Positions 1 through 15,755 of a DNA stretch of 15,755 nt are shown piece by piece. Position numbers and translations under genes: made by a program. The stretch is from the IMG/VR virus record IMGVR_UViG_2690316188_000011. One strand, 5' to 3'. This DNA comes from a virus (Duplodnaviria; Heunggongvirae; Uroviricota; Caudoviricetes). Positions within the stretch are counted from its first letter, which is position 1, and every line of letters starts with the position of its first letter. Under the pieces are notes generated by a model that was not told where the DNA came from, did not search any database, and was given only the letters and a program-made list of their open reading frames with translations.

Positions 1-297
1 CAGATCTCCAGCCAGGGACTATTGAGTACGAACGCCATCGACTTACGCGTGCGCAGGCCGACGCACAGGAACTGAAGAATGCCAGAGACTCCGCTGAAGT
101 GGTGGAAACCGCATTCTGTACTTTCGTGTTGTCGCGGATCGCAGGTGAAATTGCCAGTATTCTCGACGGGATCCCCCTGTCGGTGCAGCGGCGTTTTCCG
201 GAACTGGAAAACCGACATGTTGATTTCCTGAAACGGGATATCATCAAAGCCATGAACAAAGCAGCCGCGCTGGATGAACTGATACCGGGGTTGCTGA

Positions 298-323
<26 letters not shown>
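1..323 (+). CDS. nu1: Terminase small subunit gpNu1, 3' portion (gene wraps the circular junction; 5' portion at 15448-15755)
   Basis: Frame enters at the window edge with no start codon. Translation (...[55 protein letters not shown]...EYIEQSG) is the C-terminal half of lambda Nu1 as I recall it. Bases 1-85 are identical to 15671-15755. The stop at 321-323 lies 26 nt inside the next gene, as in lambda. The ORF-track entry 99-323 is an internal Met of this gene. Confidence 0.95.
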
Positions 324-4004
<3,681 letters not shown>

Positions 4005-4024
<20 letters not shown>

Positions 4025-5324
4025 TCTCCCGCATATTGCCAGCATGGCCTTTAATGAGCCGCTGATGCTTGAACCCGCCTATGCGCGGGTTTTCTTTTGT
4101 GCGCTTGCAGGCCAGCTTGGGATCAGCCGCCTGACGGATGCGGTGTCCGGCGACAGCCTGACTGCCCAGGAGGCACTCGCGACGCTGGCATTATCCGGTG
4201 ATGATGACGGACCACGACAGGCCCGCAGTTATCAGGTCATGAACGGCATCGCCGTGCTGCCGGTGTCCGGCACGCTGGTCAGCCGGACGCGGGCGCTGCA
4301 GCCGTACTCGGGGATGACCGGTTACAACGGCATTATCGCCCGTCTGCAACAGGCTGCCAGCGACCCGATGGTGGACGGCATTCTGCTCGATATGGACACG
4401 CCAGGCGGAATGGTGGCGGGGGCATTTGACTGCGCTGACATCATCGCCCGTGTGCGAGACATAAAACCGGTATGGGCGCTGGCCAACGACATGAACTGCA
4501 GTGCAGGTCAGCTGCTTGCCAGTGCCGCCTCCCGGCGTCTGGTCACGCAGACCGCCCGGACAGGCTCCATCGGCGTCATGATGGCTCACAGTAATTACGG
4601 TGCTGCCCTGGAGAAACAGGGTGTGGAAATCACGCTGATTTACAGCGGCAGCCATAAGGTGGATGGCAATCCCTACAGCCATCTTCCGGATGACGTCCGG
4701 GAGACACTGCAGTCCCGGATGGACGCAACCCGCCAGATGTTTGCGCAGAAGGTGTCGGCATATACCGGCCTGTCTGTGCAGGCTGTGCTGGATACCGAGG
4801 CTGCAGTGTACAGCGGTCAGGAGGCCATTGATGCCGGACTGGCTGATGAACTTGTTAACAGCACCGATGCGATCACCGTCATGCGTGATGCACTGGATGC
4901 GCGTAAATCCCGTCTCTCAGGAGGACGAATGACCAAAGAGACTCAATCAACAACTGTTTCAGCCACTGCTTCGCAGACTGACGTTACTGACGTGGTGCCA
5001 GCGACGGAGGGCGAAAACGCCAGCGCGGCGCAGCCGGACGTGAACGCGCAGATCACCGCTGCGGTTGCGGCAGAAAATAGCCGCATTATGGGGATCCTCA
5101 ACTGTGAGGAGGCTCACGGACGCGAAGAACAGGCCCGCGTGCTGGCAGAAACCCCCGGTATGACCGTGGAAACGGCCCGCCGCATTCTGGCAGCTGCACC
5201 ACAGAGTGCACAGGCGCGCAGTGACACTGCGCTGGATCGTCTGATGCAGGGGGCACCGGCACCGCTGGCTGCAGGTAACCCGGCATCTGATGCCGTTAAC
5301 GATTTGCTGAACACACCAGTGTAA
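4005..5324 (+). CDS. C: Capsid assembly protease / minor capsid protein gpC (GTG start)
   Basis: The ORF-track frame 3858-5324 contains the lambda gpC sequence from VTAELRNLPHIASMAFNEPLMLEP onward. GTG at 4005 is in frame and preceded by GAGGAGGAG (3992-4000); this gives a 439-aa product, the length of lambda gpC. The 5' end overlaps the B stop at 4022-4024. Confidence 0.9.
4719..5324 (+). CDS. nu3: Scaffolding protein Nu3, nested in frame within the 3' part of C
   Basis: In lambda, Nu3 is translated from an internal in-frame start in the last third of C. An in-frame ATG (MDATRQMFAQKVSAYTGL...) is present at 4719, the equivalent position. Not distinguishable from C by sequence alone. Confidence 0.55.
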   Translation: MDATRQMFAQKVSAYTGLSVQAVLDTEAAVYSGQEAIDAGLADELVNSTDAITVMRDALDARKSRLSGGRMTKETQSTTVSATASQTDVTDVVPATEGENASAAQPDVNAQITAAVAAENSRIMGILNCEEAHGREEQARVLAETPGMTVETARRILAAAPQSAQARSDTALDRLMQGAPAPLAAGNPASDAVNDLLNTPV

Positions 5325-5333
5325 GGGATGTTT

Positions 5334-5666
5334 ATGACGAGCAAAGAAACCTTTACCCATTACCAGCCGCTGGGCAACAGTGACCCGGCACATACGGCAA
5401 CCGCGCCCGGCGGATTGAGTGCGAAAGCGCCTGCAATGACCCCGCTGATGCTGGACACCTCCACCCGTAAGCTGGTTGCGTGGGATGGCACCACCGACGG
5501 TACTGCCGTTGGCATTCTGGCGGTTGATGCTGACCAGACCAGCACCACGCTGACGTTCTACAAGTCCGGCACGTTCCGTTATGAGGATGTGCTCTGGCCG
5601 GAGGCTGCCAGCGACGAGACGAAAAAACGGACCGCGTTTGCCGGAACGGCAATCAGCATCGTTTAA
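5334..5666 (+). CDS. D: Head decoration protein gpD
   Basis: 110-aa product from ATG 5334 ([43 protein letters not shown]...[11 protein letters not shown]) matches lambda gpD with about three substitutions. RBS AGGGA upstream. The ORF-track start at 5328 adds two residues absent from lambda D. Confidence 0.95.
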
Positions 5667-5721: not shown

Positions 5722-5997
5722 ATGTCGATGTACACAACCGCCCAGCTGCTGGCGGCAAATGAGAAGAAATTTAAGTTTGATCCGCTGTTTCTGCGTCTCT
5801 TTTTCCGTGAGAGCTATCCCTTCACCACGGAGAAAGTCTATCTCTCACAAATTCCGGGACTGGTAAACATGGCGCTGTACGTTTCGCCGATTGTTTCCGG
5901 TGAGGTTATCCGCTCCCGTGGCGGCTCCACCTCTGAATTTACACCGGGATATGTCAAGCCGAAGCACTTAGCATGGCTTTCTGAGGCTTTCGTGTAG
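5722..5997 (+). pseudogene. E: Major capsid protein gpE, truncated: 83 N-terminal codons then unrelated sequence and a stop
   Basis: ATG 5722 gives MSMYTTAQLLAANEKKFKFDPLFLRLFFRESYPFTTEKVYLSQIPGLVNMALYVSPIVSGEVIRSRGGSTSEFTPGYVKPKH, colinear with lambda gpE (341 aa in lambda). After codon H83 (ends 5966) the frame reads LAWLSEAFV-stop, which is not E sequence. Downstream DNA is AT-rich and leads into the integrase gene. Confidence 0.85.
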
Positions 5998-6129: not shown

Positions 6130-7365
6130 ATGGCTGGCGAGAACAAACTGAGCGACAAAGCGCTTAAAGGATATCTGGGGAAACCCAGAGAAAAGCAGAT
6201 CACCATTGCTGATGGAAAGGGGCTTTCTATTCGTGTGAGTACTAAAGGGGCTGTGAGCTTTGTTTTCTTCTACAGGTTAGCAGGTGGCCGGGCTGCTCCG
6301 GTCTGGCTAACGTTGGGTAAATATCCTGATATGTCACTCAAACAGGCAAGGGAAAAGCGCGACGAGTGCCGTGGTTGGTTGGCTGACAAACGTGATCCGC
6401 GTATCCAGATTAAGATTCAGGCTGAAGAACGCTTAAAGCCGGTCACAGTGGAGGATGCACTAAATTACTGGTATGAAAATTACTGTAAGGTGCGTCGTAA
6501 AACTCATGCTGTAACGCTTGGCAGATTTCGAAAGCATATCTTTCCCTATATCGGTCATTTGCCCGTAAATGACACTCACCTATATGAATGGCTGGACTGT
6601 TTTGACCGAATTAAACGTAATGCACCAGTTATGGCGGCGTATGTTTTTTCTGACACTAAATTAGCTCTTCGTTTTTGTCGGGTACGCCAGTACGCGACGT
6701 GTGATGCTTTAAAGGATTTGCGCATGAGTGATGTGGGGCAGATTGCAGGTAAGCGGGATCGGGTTCTGGATGAAGCCGAACTCGGCCAGCTCTGGAAGGC
6801 AATTTTTGTCGAGCCTGATTTAAAACTAATGTCTGAATACACGCGAAAAATGTTTGTGCTTTGTACAGTATTTGGATGTCGAATGAGTGAAGCCCGATTA
6901 TCAGAATGGAGCGAATGGGATCTCGAAAGTTGGGTTTGGACTGTACCAAAAGATCACTCAAAAACTGGTGTTGAAATCGTCAGACCAGTACCTGAAATTC
7001 TACGACAGTGGGTAACGGATGTTCACGAAGAGACAAAACATACTGGTTATGTGCTGGGAAGTCTGCGAATTAGAGAAAGCGTAAGCAAGATTGGGGGGAA
7101 AATCGGTAAACGTTTGGGCCATGAAAAACAATGGTCACTACACGACCTTAGAAGAACGCTATCTACTCATCTAAGTGATCTCGGTGTTGAATTTTATGTA
7201 GTAGAACAACTGTTAGGCCATGCGCTACCTGGCGTGGCAGGTGTTTACAACCGGAGTAAGTTTATGGCTAAAAAACTGGATGCTCTGGAACTCTGGACTA
7301 CATATCTCAATAGCATCGCAGGTGCTGATTCAAAAGTGACAATCCTCAAACAAAAGGCTGGTTAA
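6130..7365 (+). CDS. int: Tyrosine recombinase / integrase, P4-family (PICI / CP4-57-like)
   Basis: Catalytic signature residues are visible: R in GCRMSEARL, H-x-x-R in SLHDLRRTL, H in LLGHALPG, Y in GVYNRSKF. Basic N-terminal arm-binding-like domain (MAGENKLSDKALKGYLGKPREKQITIADGKGLSIRV). Start placed at ATG 6130 rather than the upstream ORF-track start at 6079. Confidence 0.9.
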   Translation: MAGENKLSDKALKGYLGKPREKQITIADGKGLSIRVSTKGAVSFVFFYRLAGGRAAPVWLTLGKYPDMSLKQAREKRDECRGWLADKRDPRIQIKIQAEERLKPVTVEDALNYWYENYCKVRRKTHAVTLGRFRKHIFPYIGHLPVNDTHLYEWLDCFDRIKRNAPVMAAYVFSDTKLALRFCRVRQYATCDALKDLRMSDVGQIAGKRDRVLDEAELGQLWKAIFVEPDLKLMSEYTRKMFVLCTVFGCRMSEARLSEWSEWDLESWVWTVPKDHSKTGVEIVRPVPEILRQWVTDVHEETKHTGYVLGSLRIRESVSKIGGKIGKRLGHEKQWSLHDLRRTLSTHLSDLGVEFYVVEQLLGHALPGVAGVYNRSKFMAKKLDALELWTTYLNSIAGADSKVTILKQKAG

Positions 7366-7366
7366 C

Positions 7367-7588
7367 ATGAAAAAAATGGCAATTGTCGATAAAAAGGGTC
7401 TGGAGTACATTCCTAATATCGATCGTATGATCCGTGAGAAAGAATGTCGGGAGCTAACCACTCTTGCGAACAGCACACGCTGGAAGCTGGAGAAGGAAGG
7501 AAAATTTCCTAAGCGGATCAAGATTGGTTCCACTGCTGTTGCATATCGTCTTTCAGAAGTGCAGGCATGGATTAGGGGAGAGTGGTAA
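7367..7588 (+). CDS. alpA: AlpA-family HTH regulator / excisionase-like protein
   Basis: 73 aa; core ELTTLANSTRWKLEKEGKFPKRIKIGSTAVAYRLSEVQAWI fits the AlpA/MerR-like winged-HTH pattern. Lies immediately after int (stop TAA 7363-7365, start 7367), the usual int-alpA arrangement of Gram-negative PICI/P4-like elements. Confidence 0.8.
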   Translation: MKKMAIVDKKGLEYIPNIDRMIREKECRELTTLANSTRWKLEKEGKFPKRIKIGSTAVAYRLSEVQAWIRGEW

Positions 7589-7639: not shown

Positions 7640-8989
7640 TCACTTAAATTCAAATACGTGCGTAGTTGATGAGATTATATAATTAGGTGGTAAGTATTGA
7701 ACTATTTCTCCATCTTCTTCAAAAATATGAATAACTCTTGGGAATAATTCAGGGCGTATAGGATTTAATGCCTTCGGATTATGAAACATGTATATTGCTG
7801 TACACCATGGTTCTTGATATGAAGGTGCATTGACAAGAGCAGTAAAAGGCATTGGGGTACAGCCTTCATCAGTTTTAATACCTCTAACGATGGATTTGAC
7901 ATTTTTTTGTTCAATCCCTGCCACTACTCCCATCCTATCAAATTTTGGGATGGTGGCATGTGTCGCAAGTAATATGGCTGAGACATTCTCATTTTTATTA
8001 GAGCCGAAAAAATTAGATTGTATACTTCGATTTTCAAATAAATGTTGTTCAATTTTACTTCCAGAATCCATATCTACACCATACAGATAGCTTTGTAGTG
8101 CTGGCATTGATATACTCATCGAAAATCTGCGTGAGTAATCGTGTAAAGCAATAATGAAAGGCTTTCCTTTTGTATGATCTAGTTCCCAATAGCATAATTT
8201 TAAGGGTTCAGGTTTATGCCTAACTTTCTTTAATAGAGTGCGGGCAAATTTGAATGGCATTTGTTCTTTTACATATCTCTGAAGATCTTCTACTGCCTCA
8301 TGATCAAGTATCAATTTCTCGGTAGGTTCCTCTTGTTCTGCAACTGTGGCAGCTTCTACAGCAATATCAATGCCATTTTTTGAGATAATATAATCAGGTT
8401 GAGCATAATCTCTGCATATTACGAAATCCATTTCGTAGAAAACTGCGTTTAGATAAAGTTCGAATAAGCGAGAGTTAAATGAAGCACTCTGGAAATCTCT
8501 GATGAATATTCCATCAGGATCTTTACACCAATAAGCTAACTCTTGCATAACAATAAATGCAGGATAGTGTTTGGGTTCCTCAAGTAGCATTCTTAGATAA
8601 ACGTTTTTTTTATGTTCTGGAACTTTGGCTAGGAATATTGAAAATGCCGACTCTGATTCGTCACCCTGTATAAAACAACCGTTCTTGTGTAGTGATAATA
8701 GCTCTGGTATGGCTTTTTCCATATCAGTAATTAAATCATCTTTAGATTCACGGGATACAATTACTTTAATCGCTCTAAATTTTTTATCTAAATCCCTACC
8801 TAGAAATATAGCGTTGTAATCATTATCTATTTTACAAAAAACAATTGTTGCTAAGATCGTGACATCATCCTTTATAAATTTGAACCAACAGATTTCCTCC
8901 GAAAAGGTTTTTACGTATGGTGTACGACCATAGAAAAATACATCAAATTGTTCTTTACTGATTTCTAGCATTTTGTGACTTGTTGTCAT
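7640..8989 (-). CDS. Hypothetical 449-aa protein, no family recognised; candidate defence/exclusion cargo
   Basis: Long uninterrupted minus-strand ORF in a visibly AT-rich segment. ATG at 8989 is preceded by AAGGA about 8 nt upstream. Starts 23 nt after the upstream RHH gene stop on the same strand (operon-like). I recognise no catalytic motif with confidence. Confidence 0.7.
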   Translation of the reverse strand: MTTSHKMLEISKEQFDVFFYGRTPYVKTFSEEICWFKFIKDDVTILATIVFCKIDNDYNAIFLGRDLDKKFRAIKVIVSRESKDDLITDMEKAIPELLSLHKNGCFIQGDESESAFSIFLAKVPEHKKNVYLRMLLEEPKHYPAFIVMQELAYWCKDPDGIFIRDFQSASFNSRLFELYLNAVFYEMDFVICRDYAQPDYIISKNGIDIAVEAATVAEQEEPTEKLILDHEAVEDLQRYVKEQMPFKFARTLLKKVRHKPEPLKLCYWELDHTKGKPFIIALHDYSRRFSMSISMPALQSYLYGVDMDSGSKIEQHLFENRSIQSNFFGSNKNENVSAILLATHATIPKFDRMGVVAGIEQKNVKSIVRGIKTDEGCTPMPFTALVNAPSYQEPWCTAIYMFHNPKALNPIRPELFPRVIHIFEEDGEIVQYLPPNYIISSTTHVFEFK

Positions 8990-10158: not shown

Positions 10159-10458
10159 ATGGAAATGAAAAATTCTGGCTTTATTGCCAGCGGCCCCGCT
10201 CGGCCTGAATTTATGAACGGCGATATTTACCGCGATAAATACGGCGGCACGGTAACGATTAAAGGCGTGGCAGAACGGCGCATCACTTACCGCCGTGAGG
10301 GGTATAGCTATGACTGCGTGATGCCTGTTTATCAGTTCCGGCGTGATTTTTCCCTGGTATATGCCGCACCCCGCAGTAAGCCCATCAGCAGGGAAAAAGC
10401 GCGGGGAAACATCCAGAAAATGAAAAGCATGATTAACGCATTCAGGGGCAAAAAATGA
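10159..10458 (+). CDS. Hypothetical 99-aa protein, translationally coupled to the primase gene
   Basis: ATG 10159 with GAGGAA (10145-10150) upstream. Stop TGA 10456-10458 overlaps the primase ATG 10455 (ATGA). Confidence 0.6.
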   Translation: MEMKNSGFIASGPARPEFMNGDIYRDKYGGTVTIKGVAERRITYRREGYSYDCVMPVYQFRRDFSLVYAAPRSKPISREKARGNIQKMKSMINAFRGKK

Positions 10459-12206
10459 AACTGGCACCGAACTTAAAAAAACAGCCACGCGACAGACTGA
10501 CAGAGGTAATCATCTTTGCAGGTAGTGATGCGTGGAGCCATGCGAAAGAGTGGCGGGAATGGGCGGGTAAACATATTGCCGCCGACGATGTGCCGCCTGT
10601 CGTGCTGGCTGATGAGCAACTGAAAAATATCACCGATTACCGGATCATTGATGAAGATCGTCAGTGTGTGCGTGTTTACCGCGCAGGACATATCACAGAG
10701 CACAGCATGACGCAGATTGTTACGTTACTGGCTGTGGCTGGAGTGAAGACCGTACACGAATACGCGGGGATTACTGACACCAGCCCAGTGGATTTATCCG
10801 AGCAGTTGCCGCGACTCAAAGAGGAATGCGAGCGTGGGGAAAGTCTGGTGCTTAATCTTCCGACGAAGCAAAAGGCGCAACTTTCACAGATGGCAGACAG
10901 TGAACGTGCACAACTACTTGCCGATCGCTTTGATGGTGTGTGTGTTCATGCAGAAAGTGAAATCGTCCACGTATGGCGCGGCGGGGTATGGTGTCCGGTC
11001 AGCACAATGGAGCTGAGCCGCGAAATGGTGGCGATCTATTCAGAGCACAGGGCCACGTTCAGCAAACGTGTAATCAATAACGCCGTGGAAGCGTTAAAAG
11101 TTATTGCCGACCCCATGGGGGAGCCGTCCGGTGATTTGCTACCGTTCACTAATGGTGTGCTTAACCTGAAAACGGGGGAATTTTCTCCGCACTCGCCGGA
11201 GCACTGGAGCACCACGCACAATGGCATTGAGTACACGCCACCAGTAGCAGGGGAAAACATCCGCGATAATGCGCCAAATTTCCATAAATGGCTTGAACAT
11301 GCTGCAAGAAAAGACCCGCGTAAGATGATGCGTATATGTGCCGCGTTATACATGATTATGGCGAACCGCTACGACTGGCAGATGTTCATTGAGGCCACCG
11401 GAGACGGGGGAAGCGGTAAGAGTACATTTACCCATATTGCCACCCTGCTTGCTGGCAAACAGAACACCGTAAGCGCGGAGATGACATCACTCGATGATGC
11501 AGGAGGGCGCGCGCAGGTTGTCGGGAGTCGTCTTATCGTCCTTGCCGATCAGCCGAAATATACGGGGGAAGGCACGGGCATCAAGAAAATCACGGGAGGC
11601 GATCCCGTTGAAATTAACCCGAAATATGAGAAGCGATTCACGACGATAATAAGGGCGGTGGTACTGGCAACCAATAACGACCCGATGATCTTTACCGAAC
11701 GGGCCGGAGGTGTGTCACGCCGTCGGGTGATTTTCCGGTTCGACAACATTGTAAGGGAGGACGAAAAAGACAAGGAATTACCGGAAAAGATAGCGGCAGA
11801 AATCCCCGTAATTATCCGCCGCTTGCTGGCTAATTTTGCTGCCCCTGAAAAGGCACGGGCTTTATTACTGGAACAGCGTGACGGTGATGAAGCTCTGGCA
11901 ATAAAGCAGCAAACGGATCCGGTTGTTGAGCTTTGCGCGGCGCTGGAGTTTCTGGAGGAAGCTCGTGGGCTAATGATGGGCGGTGGTGGTGACACCGTGA
12001 AGTACACGACCAGAAACAGCCTTTACCGTGTCTATATGGCCTTCATGGCATACACAGGAAAGGGGAAATGTTTGAGCGTGAATGAGTTCGGAAAGGCTAT
12101 GAGGTCAGCGGCGAAAGTTTACGGATATGAATATATTACGCGAAAAGTTAAGGGAGTCACGCAGACCAACGCAACGACTACTGATGATTGCGATGCGTTT
12201 TTATAA
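10455..12206 (+). CDS. Replication initiator: primase / SF3-helicase fusion (P4 alpha / D5-like NTPase)
   Basis: 583 aa. Walker A P-loop GDGGSGKST in the sequence ...FIEATGDGGSGKSTFTHIATLLAG..., with a Walker-B-like hydrophobic stretch plus acidic residue (RLIVLADQP) downstream. An iteron array follows the stop, as in P4-type and PICI pri-rep/ori modules. Confidence 0.85.
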   Translation: MKLAPNLKKQPRDRLTEVIIFAGSDAWSHAKEWREWAGKHIAADDVPPVVLADEQLKNITDYRIIDEDRQCVRVYRAGHITEHSMTQIVTLLAVAGVKTVHEYAGITDTSPVDLSEQLPRLKEECERGESLVLNLPTKQKAQLSQMADSERAQLLADRFDGVCVHAESEIVHVWRGGVWCPVSTMELSREMVAIYSEHRATFSKRVINNAVEALKVIADPMGEPSGDLLPFTNGVLNLKTGEFSPHSPEHWSTTHNGIEYTPPVAGENIRDNAPNFHKWLEHAARKDPRKMMRICAALYMIMANRYDWQMFIEATGDGGSGKSTFTHIATLLAGKQNTVSAEMTSLDDAGGRAQVVGSRLIVLADQPKYTGEGTGIKKITGGDPVEINPKYEKRFTTIIRAVVLATNNDPMIFTERAGGVSRRRVIFRFDNIVREDEKDKELPEKIAAEIPVIIRRLLANFAAPEKARALLLEQRDGDEALAIKQQTDPVVELCAALEFLEEARGLMMGGGGDTVKYTTRNSLYRVYMAFMAYTGKGKCLSVNEFGKAMRSAAKVYGYEYITRKVKGVTQTNATTTDDCDAFL

Positions 12207-12217
12207 AAAATGGCAAT

Positions 12218-12452
12218 GGTTATCTACCTTGTCTACCTGACTGAAAGAAAATACTTTTATTTCAATGTATTAATGCAGGTAGATAACTATTTTTCACTGT
12301 CTACCTGTTATCTACCTTATCTACCCATTTTTGTAGACAGGTAAGGAGACGGGTAGAGATGAGGTAGACAGCTATTTGGGGCTGTCTACCTCCCTGAAAC
12401 CCGCGCCATTACTGGCCTGATAACTAATCAGGTAGACAAGGTAGACAAGGTG
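12218..12452. repeat. Iteron array: candidate origin of replication
   Basis: About 11 copies of the core TCTACC / GGTAGA (extended TGTCTACC / GGTAGACA) in both orientations, for example 12223, 12232, 12278 (rev), 12300, 12311, 12320, 12352 (rev), 12363 (rev), 12385, 12431 (rev), 12440 (rev). An AT-rich spacer at 12241-12275 may be an unwinding element. Confidence 0.7.
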
Positions 12453-12495
12453 GTGGTGCACAAAAAACTTTTTAAACGAGGGGGTAAAAATAAAA

Positions 12496-12753
12496 ATGCA
12501 CACATCAGGAAAACTGAACAAACATATAAAGCCACATTACCGCGCCCTTGATATGGCTGAACACTGGCTAAGGGTGGCGATTAAGGCAATAGACCGCAAC
12601 GCCGGGGAAGGATACGCGAAAGCACATCCCGAACTGATAAGCGCATTCATGACAACGGCGGCTGCAAACTTTGCCACGCTGACCGAACGGGAGATTGCTG
12701 AAGCGGAGGAAGTGACAACAATCAATATTAAGTCCGGAGAGCAGGCAGCATGA
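12496..12753 (+). CDS. Hypothetical 85-aa protein, translationally coupled to the SSB-like gene
   Basis: ATG 12496 with GAGGGGG upstream. Stop TGA 12751-12753 overlaps ATG 12750 of the next gene. Confidence 0.5.
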   Translation: MHTSGKLNKHIKPHYRALDMAEHWLRVAIKAIDRNAGEGYAKAHPELISAFMTTAAANFATLTEREIAEAEEVTTINIKSGEQAA

Positions 12754-13199
12754 CGGCGCAAATATCAGTTTACGGGCGGTTGGTGGACGACCCGCAGACA
12801 AAACAGACCAGCAAGGGCACCCCCATGACGCTGGCGCGTATGGCGGTATCACTGCCCTGCAGTCAGTCGGATGACGGTCTGGCGACGTTGTGGTTATCTG
12901 TCCTGGCGTTTGGCAGACAAGCCGACGCGCTGGCAAAGCATCACAAAGGCGAACTCCTGAGCGTGGCGGGTAACATGCAGATGAGCCAGTGGACTGGACA
13001 GAACGGCGAAACGCGGCAGGGCTGGCAGGTTATCGCAGACAGCGTAATCAGTGCGCGATCGGTGCGACCGGGCGGCAAAAAAGGCCAACAGGGGCAGGCT
13101 ACTGACGCACTGAACAGAGCAAAACAACAGGCAGATCAGCAAGGAAGCCAGCCACCAGAGGGAGATAATGAGCAATGGGGAGATGATATCCCGTTTTAA
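12750..13199 (+). CDS. Single-stranded DNA-binding protein (SSB-like OB fold with acidic C-terminal tail)
   Basis: 149 aa. N-terminal pattern ISVYGRLVDDPQTKQT...WLSVLAFGRQAD resembles the SSB OB fold (VxGRL..DPE ... W..V..FG). Gly/Gln-rich linker and C-terminus ...EQWGDDIPF, which matches the conserved SSB tail motif DDDIPF. Confidence 0.75.
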   Translation: MTAQISVYGRLVDDPQTKQTSKGTPMTLARMAVSLPCSQSDDGLATLWLSVLAFGRQADALAKHHKGELLSVAGNMQMSQWTGQNGETRQGWQVIADSVISARSVRPGGKKGQQGQATDALNRAKQQADQQGSQPPEGDNEQWGDDIPF

Positions 13200-13241: not shown

Positions 13242-13415
13242 ATGCTACATAAATCCCGACCAAAGGGAGTGAAGATATTAACACTAATTGTCCGCACTGA
13301 AGTTGTCACCCCAAAACTTTATACAACATTGCACTCGGTTGCATGTGTTCGCATGACAAATATCGGTGATAGCATATATCCACAATTATTTTTAATGAAT
13401 GCAAAGAGGATGCGT

Positions 13416-14456
13416 ATGGTTGATTTATATTCGCCTACCCAGCTTGTACAGGTGGTTAATGCTGTAGATGTACAAAAACAACTAAATGCGTTGTTTACCA
13501 GTTTGTTTTTTACTCGCTCGGTAATGTTTGGATCGCGCGATATTATTCTTGATACAATCGACGATCCAAATATCCCAATTGCAGCGTTTTGTTCTCCTAT
13601 GGTGGGTAGTAAAGTTTCACGTGACGAAGGGTACGAATCAAAAACAATTCGTCCAGGCTATATGAAGCCGAAAAGCAGCATTGATCCAAATAAGTTAGCT
13701 GTGCGCCCTGCTGGTGTATCACCTGAGCAATACAATGCTTTTGGGGCGCGTAATATTAAAGTTAAACAGGCGATTGTAAATCAAGCTAAAGCTATTCGTG
13801 CACGTATTGAATGGCTTGCCGTTCAGGCAATCACAACGGGGAAAAATATCATTGAGGGCGATGGTATTGAACGTTATGAGCTGGACTGGAATATTAAACC
13901 ACAAAATATCATCACTCAGTCTGGCGGTACTGAGTGGTCAGGTAAGGATAAAGAAACTTTTGATCCAAATGATGATATTGAGAGCTACGCAGAATTTAGT
14001 GAGGGCGTCACTAATATCATCATTATGGGCGGTAATGTATGGAAGAAATACCGTTCATTCAGAGCGATAAAAGAGGCTCTGGATACCCGTCGTGGTTCTA
14101 ATTCCGAACTGGAAACGGCCCTTAAAGACCTTGGTGATTCGGTGAGTTTTAAAGGATATATGGGCGATGTTGCGATTGTTGTTTACAGCGGGCGTTATAC
14201 CGACGAGGACGGAACTGAAAAACATTTCCTTGATCCTGATTTGATGGTGCTTGGCAATACGGCTCTTCAGGGGATTGTCGCCTATGGCGGTATTCAGGAT
14301 CCGGAGCTAATCCGAATGGGGCTGACTAAAGCCGAACTTGCACCGAAAAACTATATTGTGCCTGGTGATCCGGCTATTGAATATGTGCAGACACATTCAG
14401 CACCACAGCCAATACCGGCCCGCATCAATCGTTTTGTTACCGTTCGCATTGGCTAA
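13416..14456 (+). CDS. Major capsid protein, lambda gpE family, divergent paralogue
   Basis: From ATG 13416 (AGAGGA at 13405-13410): MVDLYSPTQL...RPGYMKPKS...NIITQSGGTEWSGKDKETFDPNDDIESYA...YRSFRAIKEALDTRRGSNSELETALKDLGDSVSFKGYMGDVAIVVYSGRY...MVLGNT... Colinear with lambda gpE as I recall it (E has NITQSGGTEWSKRDKSTYDPTDDIEAYA...FRSFKAVKEKLDTRRGSNSELETAVKDLGKAVSYKGMYGDVAIVVYSGQY...MVLGNT) but clearly diverged. The ORF-track start at 13203 is rejected because it runs through a hairpin and a non-coding-looking leader. Confidence 0.85.
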   Translation: MVDLYSPTQLVQVVNAVDVQKQLNALFTSLFFTRSVMFGSRDIILDTIDDPNIPIAAFCSPMVGSKVSRDEGYESKTIRPGYMKPKSSIDPNKLAVRPAGVSPEQYNAFGARNIKVKQAIVNQAKAIRARIEWLAVQAITTGKNIIEGDGIERYELDWNIKPQNIITQSGGTEWSGKDKETFDPNDDIESYAEFSEGVTNIIIMGGNVWKKYRSFRAIKEALDTRRGSNSELETALKDLGDSVSFKGYMGDVAIVVYSGRYTDEDGTEKHFLDPDLMVLGNTALQGIVAYGGIQDPELIRMGLTKAELAPKNYIVPGDPAIEYVQTHSAPQPIPARINRFVTVRIG

Positions 14457-14465
14457 GGGGGAGCA

Positions 14466-14807
14466 ATGGCTACTCATTACACTGAACTCATGGCTGGCAC
14501 TGAAGCACTGGTGACTACGCTGGGGATATTTTCAGCTAATAAAGGGGTAATTCCTGCATTTACGCCACTGATGCAGGAAGATGCAACAGGTGCACTGGTG
14601 GTATGGGATGGTTCGAGCGTAGGTAAAGCGGTTTATGTTTCCGCTGTACAAATCGACACCGCGAAAAAAACACAGGCTCAGGTCTATAAGACAGGTGTCT
14701 TAAATGTTGATGCTCTGAACTGGCCTGAGTCTGTAAAAGAACTGTCAGTAAAGATTGCAGCGTTTGTTGGCTCAGGTATTTCTGTTCAGCCGCTGGCTCG
14801 TGTGTAA
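14466..14807 (+). CDS. Head decoration protein, gpD-like, divergent paralogue
   Basis: 113 aa. Shares the gpD landmarks TPLM, WDG, YK(S/T)G, WPE and AF.G..IS (…AFTPLMQEDATGALVVWDGSSVG…QVYKTGVLNVDALNWPES…AAFVGSGISVQ) with lambda D (…[22 protein letters not shown]…[18 protein letters not shown]…[11 protein letters not shown]). RBS AAGGGGGAG. Confidence 0.75.
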   Translation: MATHYTELMAGTEALVTTLGIFSANKGVIPAFTPLMQEDATGALVVWDGSSVGKAVYVSAVQIDTAKKTQAQVYKTGVLNVDALNWPESVKELSVKIAAFVGSGISVQPLARV

Positions 14808-14818
14808 AGGGGGATACA

Positions 14819-15202
14819 ATGCAAAATGATTACAATGACCTTAAGCCAATTGCCGAAATGATGTACCCGAATCCAGCTGTAGAGGAATTAAAAGCTATCG
14901 CTGACAAAATGTGTTTAAGCGAGCGCCTTGTTGATATGAATCAGGTGATGGAAATTACAACCCTGAGTCGGCGTACACTGCTAAACCTTGAGGCTAGTGG
15001 AGAGTTCCCGGAGCGTGTGCAGGTTACGGAAGGGCGTAAGGCCTGGTATTTAAGTGAAGTGATCGACTGGATAAATAATATTCCTCGCGCTTCTGAATAT
15101 TGCCGCGTACCTGTCCCAAAAAAGCCAGATGCGGCGCTATGCCTCAAGATTGAGCGTGTACGCCGCAATGCACGGGATGGTCGCTATAAGCTGATTGGTT
15201 GA
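14819..15202 (+). CDS. AlpA/MerR-like winged-HTH protein next to cos; candidate packaging-redirection (Rpp-like) factor
   Basis: 127 aa. Central segment MNQVMEITTLSRRTLLNLEASGEFPERVQVTEGRKAWYLSEVIDWI fits the AlpA / Nu1-N-terminal HTH pattern. Last gene before cos; RBS AAGGGGGA as in the two capsid genes. Confidence 0.55.
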   Translation: MQNDYNDLKPIAEMMYPNPAVEELKAIADKMCLSERLVDMNQVMEITTLSRRTLLNLEASGEFPERVQVTEGRKAWYLSEVIDWINNIPRASEYCRVPVPKKPDAALCLKIERVRRNARDGRYKLIG

Positions 15203-15227
15203 TGAAATTAGGGCCCGCTCTGGCTGG

Positions 15228-15447
15228 CGGGTCCTTTCCGGCGATCTGACAGGCTACGGGGCGTCAGGCGCGCGGATTTTCGCTATTTATGAAAATTTTC
15301 CGGTTTAAGGCGTTTCCGTTCTTCTTCGTCGTAACTTAATGTTTTTATTTAAAATACCCCCTGAAAAGAAAGGAAACGACAGGTGCTGAAAGCGAGCTTT
15401 TTGGCCTCTGTCGTTTCCTTTCTCTGTTTTTGTCCGTGGAATGAACA
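15228..15447. other. Lambdoid cos packaging site (cosQ-like, cosN-equivalent 15259-15270, cosB with R3/R2/R1 Nu1-binding elements)
   Basis: Colinear with the lambda right-end/left-end junction as I recall it. cosQ-like GGGTCCTTTCCGGCGATCTGACAGGCTACG. cosB CGCGGATTTTCGCTATTTATGAAAATTTTCCGG... with CGTTTCC at 15311-15317 (R3), GGAAACG at 15372-15378 (R2) and CGTTTCC at 15412-15418 (R1); R2 and R1 form an inverted repeat (GGAAACGACAG / CTGTCGTTTCC). Ends at the Nu1 start codon. Confidence 0.8.
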
Positions 15448-15755
15448 ATGGAAGTCAACAAAAAGCAGCTGGCTGACATTTTCGGTGCGAGTATCCGTAC
15501 CATTCAGAACTGGCAGGAACAGGGAATGCCCGTTCTGCGAGGCGGTGGCAAGGGTAATGAGGTGCTTTATGACTCTGCCGCCGTCATAAAATGGTATGCC
15601 GAAAGGGATGCTGAAATTGAGAACGAAAAGCTGCGCCGGGAGGTTGAAGAACTGCGGCAGGCCAGCGAGGCAGATCTCCAGCCAGGGACTATTGAGTACG
15701 AACGCCATCGACTTACGCGTGCGCAGGCCGACGCACAGGAACTGAAGAATGCCAG
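15448..15755 (+). CDS. nu1: Terminase small subunit gpNu1, 5' portion (continues at 1-323 across the circular junction)
   Basis: ATG 15448 gives [102 protein letters not shown], matching the lambda Nu1 N-terminus. It runs off the window end in the same frame in which position 1 enters. Confidence 0.95.
15671..15755. repeat. 85-bp terminal overlap identical to bases 1-85 (circular closure of the record)
   Basis: Exact identity of 15671-15755 with 1-85 (CAGATCTCCAGCCAGGGACTATTGAGTACG...GAAGAATGCCAG). Reading frames are continuous across the join. Confidence 0.9.

Follow-up and report, generated by a model that had tools for sequence, protein, structure and literature searches.

Here we describe the cos packaging site near the right end of IMG/VR virus record IMGVR_UViG_2690316188_000011, a 15,755-nt stretch of tailed-phage DNA that is called the window throughout. 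The window combines part of a lambdoid prophage, referred to as the helper, with a phage satellite embedded in the capsid gene E of that helper. The cos site considered here lies at the satellite end, directly before a Nu1-family gene for a small terminase subunit (TerS), designated terS*, and consists of the following parts.

15229-15235, plus strand: cosQ heptamer GGGTCCT of the satellite cos, identical to lambda and to phage DE3 in sequence and in spacing to cosN.
15257-15272, plus strand: cosN, comprising the 12-mer GGGCGTCAGGCG (15259-15270) and two flanking base pairs on each side, placed by alignment with the DE3 cos.
15271-15447, plus strand: lambda-type cosB, with R3 at about 15308-15323 followed by I1, R2 and R1, placed by alignment with lambda.
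15448-15755, plus strand: first 102 codons of the satellite Nu1-family terS*, the last 85 bp of which are an exact repeat of the helper Nu1.

The site was aligned with the cos annotated in the lambda derivative DE3 and with phage Turner. The window reads GACAGGCTACG at 15248-15258, GGGCGTCAGGCG at 15259-15270 and CGCGGATTTTCGC at 15271-15283, where the lambda counterpart is GACAGGTTACG, GGGCGGCGACCT and CGCGGGTTTTCGC. The alignment is free of gaps, and both the cosQ heptamer and the Nu1 start are found at the lambda spacing. Five of the 12 cosN bases are changed, at positions 6, 8, 9, 10 and 12 (window 15264, 15266, 15267, 15268 and 15270), against a single change in each immediate flank (15254 T to C and 15276 G to A). 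A sequence-only reading of the window had compared it with a lambda end junction and had counted five changes in the 12-mer and one or two in each flank. The lambda junction used there agrees with the DE3 and Turner alignment; the count of five is exact, and the flanks carry one change each. The homology to lambda begins 31 bp upstream of the 12-mer, and the whole lambda-homologous stretch (15228-15755, 528 bp) contains 12 mismatches, five of them within the 12-mer (Fisher exact p = 1.7e-6), a clustering far from chance. The cosB region differs from lambda only at 15276, 15331 and 15360 (3 in 177 bp), and the head genes of the window are 98.3% identical to those of lambda at the nucleotide level.

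Identical copies of the 12-mer are present in 57 IMG/VR contigs and in at least 13 complete E. coli genomes. For an allele census we used an anchored scan, in which the satellite-specific left flank was the query and the search was blind to the 12-mer; it covered IMG/VR plus the E. coli sequences OZ501679 (L003) and CP062853 (L004). The resulting 101 loci contained GGGCGTCAGGCG in 55 cases, the canonical GGGCGGCGACCT in 40, GGGCGGAAGGCG in four, and GGGCGGCAGACG and GGGCGGCTGACG in one each. Invariant across all of them were TACG before the nick, cosN positions 1-5 (GGGCG), position 11 (C) and GC at +14/+15, with either C or T at +13. The six non-canonical 12-mers with multiple changes (five from satellites or phages, one from a helper) vary only at positions 6-12. 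Two phages deposited as complete, PhiR46_1 and YDC107_1, have GGGCGGAAGGCG, with five changes, as their own cos and a large terminase subunit (TerL, gpA) three residues away from that of lambda. The window allele also occupies the phage-type (prophage) cos of the IMG/VR contigs L049, L015, L060 and L024, beside gpA proteins 99-100% identical to that of the window; it was seen in no isolated phage, only at such prophage-type sites in IMG/VR contigs. Among the matches listed, 116 of 120 non-satellite phage-type cos sites in IMG/VR (~97%) are canonical and none has the window allele.

Additional phage-type alleles were observed in Kluyvera georgiana (L125, GGGCGGCGTCCG) and in IMG/VR (L210, GGGCGTCGACCT, changed at position 6 only, and L222, GGGCGGCGACCG, changed at position 12 only). 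The latter two are single-step variants whose changes are also part of the window allele. A scan of genome contigs produced 16 matches only, several of which are lambda DNA in unrelated assemblies, so that it is of little use for allele frequencies. Three assemblies, of Raphidiopsis brookii D9, Aeromicrobium sp. PE09-221 and a 39.8-kb Alicyclobacillus fastidiosus 'plasmid' (L122, L123 and L126), have a cos region identical to lambda over 132 bp (30 bp upstream, the 42-bp cosQ-to-cosN core including the 12-mer, and 50 bp downstream), most likely through lambda DNA contamination or spike-in.

Apart from the end sequence, the sequence features of the site are those of a lambda-type cos: cosQ GGGTCCT stands at its fixed distance upstream of cosN, the nick context, taken after PMC9303873 and PMC9026076 as two flanking base pairs per side plus the first 4-5 bases of the 12-mer, is CG / GGGCG ... 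/ CG, and a cosB with R3, I1, R2 and R1 at the lambda distance is followed by a Nu1-family terS. The canonical cohesive end GGGCGGCGACCT is replaced at five of its 12 positions; published variants indicate that this end is not needed for membership in the wider lambda-like group (PMC4669245). Natural cosN differences in bp 7-12 are common, as in N15 (positions 9 and 12) and gifsy-1 (positions 8, 9 and 11). Right-half mutations have little effect and left-half mutations a severe one, lambda TerL nicks right-half variants efficiently, the yield is independent of the cosN allele, and the lambda and N15 terminases are without cosN specificity (PMC4669245). TerS bound at cosB sets the position of TerL, whose own sequence specificity is not high (PMC9026076, also the source for the R3 position, bp 50-65, and for the role of cosQ). 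Vahanian 2017, as cited in PMC9303873 and PMC12315714, places the conserved part of cosN among lambda-like phages in its first bases and the two flanking base pairs. The substitutions of the window, at 6, 8, 9, 10 and 12, are likewise limited to the right part (bp 6/7-12).

The gpA encoded in the window differs from lambda and DE3 gpA at 2 of 641 residues (T151S and D185E), and the comparison revealed no change that could retarget the nuclease in region 501-520, which is identical to lambda. Suppressors of cosN mutations map to gpA residues of about 509-515. Taken with the intact cosQ, nick-flanking bases, cosN positions 1-5 and cosB, and with changes confined to the part of cosN that is published as unread, this near-identity favours the first of three meanings offered in the sequence-only reading, namely a different cohesive end served by a lambda-type terminase; the second, a non-cleavable cosN, fares poorly, and the third, a recombination or assembly join, caught something real but misplaced it.

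We conclude that GGGCGTCAGGCG is probably a natural cosN allele of the satellite, which the lambda-type terminase of the helper would cut with a change in the overhangs only. Binding of TerS to the lambda-like cosB, together with contacts of TerL to the conserved cosN left half (CG / GGGCG), would bring the helper terminase to the site, where it would nick the two strands 12 bp apart in the manner of lambda. The five substitutions would alter only the sequence of the 12-nt 5' overhang without stopping the cutting, because the right half of cosN would not be read by the enzyme. The nicks are predicted at 15258/15259 on the top strand and at 15270/15271 on the bottom strand, by analogy with lambda (PMC9026076), and normal nicking there would most likely produce 5'-GGGCGTCAGGCG ends. 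Satellite DNA cut in this way would cyclize on its own ends as stably as lambda but would pair poorly with ends made at the helper cos. All six alleles contain 10 G+C in 12 and have matched-duplex energies of -18.6 to -19.0 kcal/mol, against -9.1 to -9.3 kcal/mol for the cross-duplexes between lambda and a variant; for the lambda overhang annealed to the window allele the value is about -9.2 kcal/mol, roughly half that of a matched duplex. An end mismatch of two bases lowers the viable yield about fourfold (PMC4669245), and by extension five mismatches should be much worse.

By its gene content and junctions, the window is assigned to a lambdoid prophage stretch, running from the C-terminus of Nu1 to a truncated E, plus a helper-embedded phage-inducible chromosomal island (PICI) of the '11capE' type inserted in E. 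In OZ501679, CP062853 and other composites, the prophage lysis genes are followed by cos, Nu1, A, W, B, C, D and a 5' fragment of E (E'). Next come int, alpA, a variable zone and genes for a primase and a single-stranded DNA-binding protein (SSB), then second genes for the major capsid and decoration proteins, one AlpA-like gene, another cos and, in some cases, a second, Nu1-like terS. The prophage resumes with the rest of E (its 3' part), FI and the tail genes. The published type strain NRG857c has the same layout, and the satellite measures ~10.7 kb. The corresponding features of the window are listed below.

1-323, plus strand: C-terminal part of the helper Nu1 (TerS); bases 1-85 repeat 15671-15755, and from position 1 onward the window is 97-98% identical to the helper Nu1 copy of L003 and L004.
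298-2223, plus strand: open reading frame for helper gpA (TerL, 641 aa), the expected cosN nickase.
2220-5666, plus strand: open reading frames for the helper head genes W (2220-2426), B (portal, 2423-4024), C/Nu3 (S49 protease, about 4005-5324) and D (about 5334-5666), in the same order as annotated in L003 and L004.
5722-5966, plus strand: E', ~82 codons from the 5' end of the helper gene E (major capsid protein), which the satellite insertion interrupts; the identity to lambda E ends at offset 245, and relatives have a partial major capsid protein annotated here.
5957-5966, plus strand: attL identity block AGCCGAAGCA of site E_Phage_cap_E_80, which L004 also has at attR.
6130-7365, plus strand: satellite integrase (Pfam Arm-DNA-bind_3 and Phage_integrase).
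7367-7588, plus strand: satellite AlpA (Pfam Phage_AlpA).
7640-8989, minus strand: PD-T7-1 anti-phage defence protein, a satellite cargo of 449 aa (PADLOC E = 1.3e-153; no Pfam match).
10159-13199, plus strand: satellite replication zone with DUF4222 (10159-10458), a D5_N/DUF5906 primase (10455-12206) and SSB (12750-13199), from Pfam matches.
13413-15202, plus strand: satellite late zone with the major capsid gene E* (13413-14456), the decoration gene D* (14466-14807) and an AlpA-like helix-turn-helix (HTH) gene (14819-15202), from Pfam matches to Phage_cap_E, HDPD and Phage_AlpA.

The 10-bp attL block and its satellite-side flank equal the entries for E_Phage_cap_E_80 in the supplement of PMC10111431. 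The insertion lies at about codon 80 of a capsid gene of the lambda E family and has the 10-bp identity block, and the PICI gene set (int, alpA, pri and a late zone with its own capsid gene) is co-oriented with the helper late genes, as is characteristic of 11capE elements. The product of E* is ~42% identical to lambda E. For the type element, excision has been shown and transfer not demonstrated (PMC10111431). At the place of the PD-T7-1 gene, relatives carry genes for DUF2971, TIR-domain, HEPN/DUF262, Abi and HicB-like proteins, and the spot looks like a defence hotspot of the satellite. In two other E-embedded satellites (L240 and L241, about 16520-17300), which have GGGCGGAAGGCG as cosN, fragments of tail genes ('phage tail protein' and 'tail assembly protein') lie between the AlpA-like gene and cos, an example of late-gene capture.

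This layout assigns the variant cos to the satellite and places the helper's own cos outside the window. The window starts and finishes with the same 85 bases (1-85 and 15671-15755), which makes it look like a 15,670-bp circle with lambda Nu1, A, W, B, C and D. Its right end (15100-15755) follows the L004 satellite copy at 99.7% identity up to exactly 15755, where terS* departs from Nu1; from position 1 on, the window tracks the helper copy. In the L004 chromosome the helper Nu1 and the satellite terS* share the same exact 85-bp repeat, CAGATC...GCCAG, as the terminal overlap of the window, and int is preceded by an attL junction and not by attP. The window is probably a segment of a composite prophage with a copy of the repeat at each end, enough to pass as circular in a terminal-repeat test, and the circle is likely an artefact, because the overlap coincides exactly with an 85-bp repeat that linear chromosomes carry as well; the apparent circularity would come from this repeat and not from annealed ends. 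A real circle may have arisen through homologous recombination between the two cos-Nu1 copies, an explanation against which the exact coincidence of overlap and repeat speaks.

The idea of a 15.7-kb circular capsid-forming PICI, or autonomous element, with lambda head genes was rejected in view of the E. coli composites, the attL junction and the 85-bp repeat. Instead of a single mobile unit with its own terminase, portal, protease and capsid, the window has helper genes from the Nu1 C-terminus to E'. As a practical lesson, repeat-bounded contigs of prophage-plus-satellite composites can look like small circular 'viral genomes'.

Two cos sites are thus carried by one composite, and their alleles can be compared within a chromosome. 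In L003, L004 and NRG857c, the helper cos is canonical (GGGCGGCGACCT) and the embedded satellite has GGGCGTCAGGCG. Among 15 E-embedded composites from complete E. coli genomes with both sites visible, which are clonally related assemblies picked in part for similarity to the window, the satellite has GGGCGTCAGGCG in 13 and GGGCGGAAGGCG in two, while the helper is canonical in 13, has GGGCGGAAGGCG in one and the canonical 12-mer with G1A in one. Helper and satellite cosN are discordant in all 15.

Several helper sites are unusual in other ways. The helper cos of E. coli Ec-U1 (L244, at about 1089) reads AGGCGGCGACCT, with a change at the strongly conserved position 1 that suggests a crippled prophage cos. 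In L247 and L255, the helper cos has CTCGGG in place of CGCGGG right after the right nick. The helper cos of E. coli LH85-a (L248, about 3230-3290) has the 12-mer GGGCGGGAGCGT, changed at positions 7, 8, 9 and 11, a different spacer between cosQ and cosN and a fragment of an HNH endonuclease gene upstream; this helper hosts a portal-embedded satellite with a canonical cosN.

For 80 loci the satellite could be classified by its integrase type or by the interrupted downstream gene, and the alleles are distributed as follows.

Capsid-gene-embedded satellites: window allele 49, GGGCGGAAGGCG 2, canonical 3.
Portal-gene-embedded satellites: window allele 1, GGGCGGAAGGCG 0, canonical 15.
Chromosomal PICIs with the same late module: window allele 0, GGGCGGAAGGCG 0, canonical 10.

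A non-canonical cosN is therefore present in 51 of 54 E-embedded satellites versus 1 of 26 portal-embedded or chromosomal ones (Fisher p = 2e-16, for loci that are not independent), with exceptions in both directions (L075, L086, L098 and L042). The window allele occurs on at least six left 17-nt haplotypes, at least nine right haplotypes and four or five cosB families, some of them shared with the canonical allele. It follows that the 12-mer has recombined off its immediate neighbours, yet it is tied to the integration class ~9 kb away. That a non-canonical cosN marks E-embedded satellites appears to be a new point.

The late module itself (capsid, decoration, HTH, cos and terS, 95-98% identical) was also observed in the chromosomal PICIs L253, L254 and L258-L260, which are located at cspD/clpS, roxA/phoQ and abgR/smrA and have different integrases and replication genes. 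Altogether, 366 of 5,426 complete E. coli genomes carry this module.

The haplotype pattern hints at selection, and one extension of the natural-allele explanation is that E-embedded satellites gain from ends unable to anneal with those of the resident helper, so that DNA running from helper cos to satellite cos, or end-joined products of helper and satellite, could not cyclize. It would fit the contrast of 51 in 54 with 1 in 26 relatives sharing the late module, the many flank haplotypes under one integration class, and the discordance of all 15 composites. It would also fit L253, a chromosomal PICI with the E-type HTH allele and a canonical cosN, and L256, an E-embedded satellite with a divergent late module and a variant cosN, as well as the fourfold cost of a 2-bp mismatch (PMC4669245) and the halved energy of the 5-bp cross-duplex. 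However, no convincing E-specific mechanism was found: of the scenarios tried (termination at the embedded cos, cyclizable by-products of 15.5 kb and 45 kb, and end-joining after co-injection), none predicts a clear benefit, because cutting is not allele-specific and a mismatch cannot prevent wasteful packaging. In addition, with ~97% of phage-type cos sites canonical among the matches listed, any lineage founded by a variant would be discordant by default, the samples are clonal and partly chosen by similarity, the four exceptions named above run against the rule, and portal-embedded satellites persist with concordant ends (L247, L255 and L257). A founder allele exchanged mainly among E-embedded satellites, i.e., population structure, is a sufficient alternative. 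We regard maintenance of the allele by selection as possible but on balance unlikely, and the more specific proposal, that selection maintains in E-embedded satellites a cohesive-end 'barcode' of their own (GGGCGTCAGGCG or, more rarely, GGGCGGAAGGCG), which the terminase acting on the helper cos would also cut but whose overhangs would not anneal with those of the helper, as rather doubtful.

Four points weigh against normal cutting at the variant site. Cleavage and ends are inferred; position 6 (G to T) lies at the edge of the sensitive left half, and only natural occurrence (the allele itself and GGGCGTCGACCT at one phage-type cos) speaks for its tolerance; Tommasini et al. detected neither virions nor plaques from the type composite (PMC10111431); and terS* is a pseudogene in several genomes, a sign that some copies are losing parts of their packaging module to decay. 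The last two, along with the bare number of five substitutions in a 12-bp catalytic site, would be expected if the 12-mer were a decayed, non-cleavable site of a defective element from which the satellite is no longer packaged. Decay predicts scattered and differing mutations, whereas 55 of the 101 anchored loci, and 49 of the 54 E-embedded ones, have exactly the same 12-mer, across many mosaic satellites with varying flanks. Moreover, cosQ, the bases at -2/-1, cosN positions 1-5, the +13/+14 bases and the R3 spacing are all intact, G+C content and duplex stability are preserved, the allele is found at a phage-type cos with a complete head gene set (L049), and a sister allele with five changes serves phages deposited as complete. 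Loss of cleavage is accordingly very unlikely, and cutting by the helper terminase remains the preferred explanation.

Another explanation would have the variant cosN require a matching specialised terminase, formed either by a satellite TerS* that redirects TerL or by a co-evolved gpA, in a manner similar to the Rpp redirection in EcCICFT073. PICIs are known to redirect helper terminases (PMC9026076), and some of the satellites do encode a TerS* with a C-terminal half unlike that of Nu1. In L004, terS* (18221-18772) is intact and encodes a full-length Nu1 homologue with a Pfam Phage_Nu1 match, which shares its first ~102 codons with lambda Nu1 and diverges in the TerL-binding C-terminal half. 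Nevertheless, many satellites with the same 12-mer have only a terS* pseudogene, annotated with an internal stop in at least four genomes (L244, L245, L246 and L251), or lack terS* altogether, as do those of the L003 type. The helper gpA is identical to that of lambda in L004, five residues off in L003 and near-identical in the window, the cosB is of lambda type and not the R3-only Rpp type, and the published lambda and N15 terminases have no cosN specificity (PMC4669245). A dedicated terminase is highly improbable on these grounds.

As for an error of sequencing or assembly, or a chimera, at a contig join, to which the pseudo-circular contig and the start of lambda homology 31 bp upstream of the 12-mer could point, it is refuted by the recurrence of the 12-mer in independent assemblies (57 IMG/VR contigs and at least 13 complete E. 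coli genomes, the published type strain included), by a finished E. coli chromosome in which the surrounding 73 bp are 100% identical and by the position of the closing repeat at 15671-15755, away from cosN. The suspicion of a join was right in that cos opens the packaging module of the satellite, and lambda homology starts shortly before it because the site is the satellite's and not the phage's; the pseudo-circular join itself falls in the 85-bp repeat ~400 bp downstream, not in cosN.

Comparison with known systems places the site between several of them. With lambda cos it shares cosQ and its spacing, the nick flanks, 12-mer positions 1-5, 7 and 11, cosB, a Nu1-family terS directly downstream and a gpA two residues off; it differs in the five cohesive-end bases, in its location within a ~10.7-kb satellite and in having an AlpA-like gene, not the phage lysis region, upstream of cosQ. 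Like the natural cosN variants of N15, gifsy-1 and mEp213/LLS (Vahanian et al. 2017; Feiss et al. 2015), it keeps the left end and nick flanks fixed and changes within bp 6/7-12. Unlike these, it has five changes against two or three in the compared examples and stands beside a near-lambda TerL and not in a diverged phage. The 11capE element at E_Phage_cap_E_80 (PMC10111431) agrees in att block and flank, gene order and co-orientation, and the NRG857c type element has the same 12-mer. In that paper, Tommasini, Mageeney and Williams (2023) noted only that satellite and helper share a cos-like stretch of 258 bp at 90% identity; cosN is not mentioned, and neither the allele difference nor its link to the integration class is described. 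PICIs of the EcCICFT073 type (Fillol-Salom 2018/2019; Murialdo and Feiss 2022) resemble the window as Gram-negative PICIs with cosQ and cosN for a lambda-like helper terminase. Their cosN is described as nearly identical to that of the helper (PMC9026076), they lack a lambda-like cosB and their Rpp redirects TerS, whereas the window has a lambda-type cosB and a divergent cosN, and the single Rpp-bound R3-like site with rpp downstream that defines such elements (PMC9026076) is absent from it.

The variant 12-mer is therefore one more natural cosN allele that obeys the rule of the Feiss laboratory, with the left half fixed and the right half free, in a published type of satellite, and it is largely explained. 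What is modestly new is the link between allele and lineage, together with the systematic mismatch between satellite and helper. The presence in one chromosome of a near-lambda TerL and of two cos sites with 5 of 12 overhang bases different also goes beyond the literature consulted, and provides a clean natural test of how little TerL reads the right half of cosN. If the difference is adaptive, cohesive ends would act as a compatibility label between phage and parasite, and would be an evolvable determinant of phage-satellite conflict, not a frozen constant.

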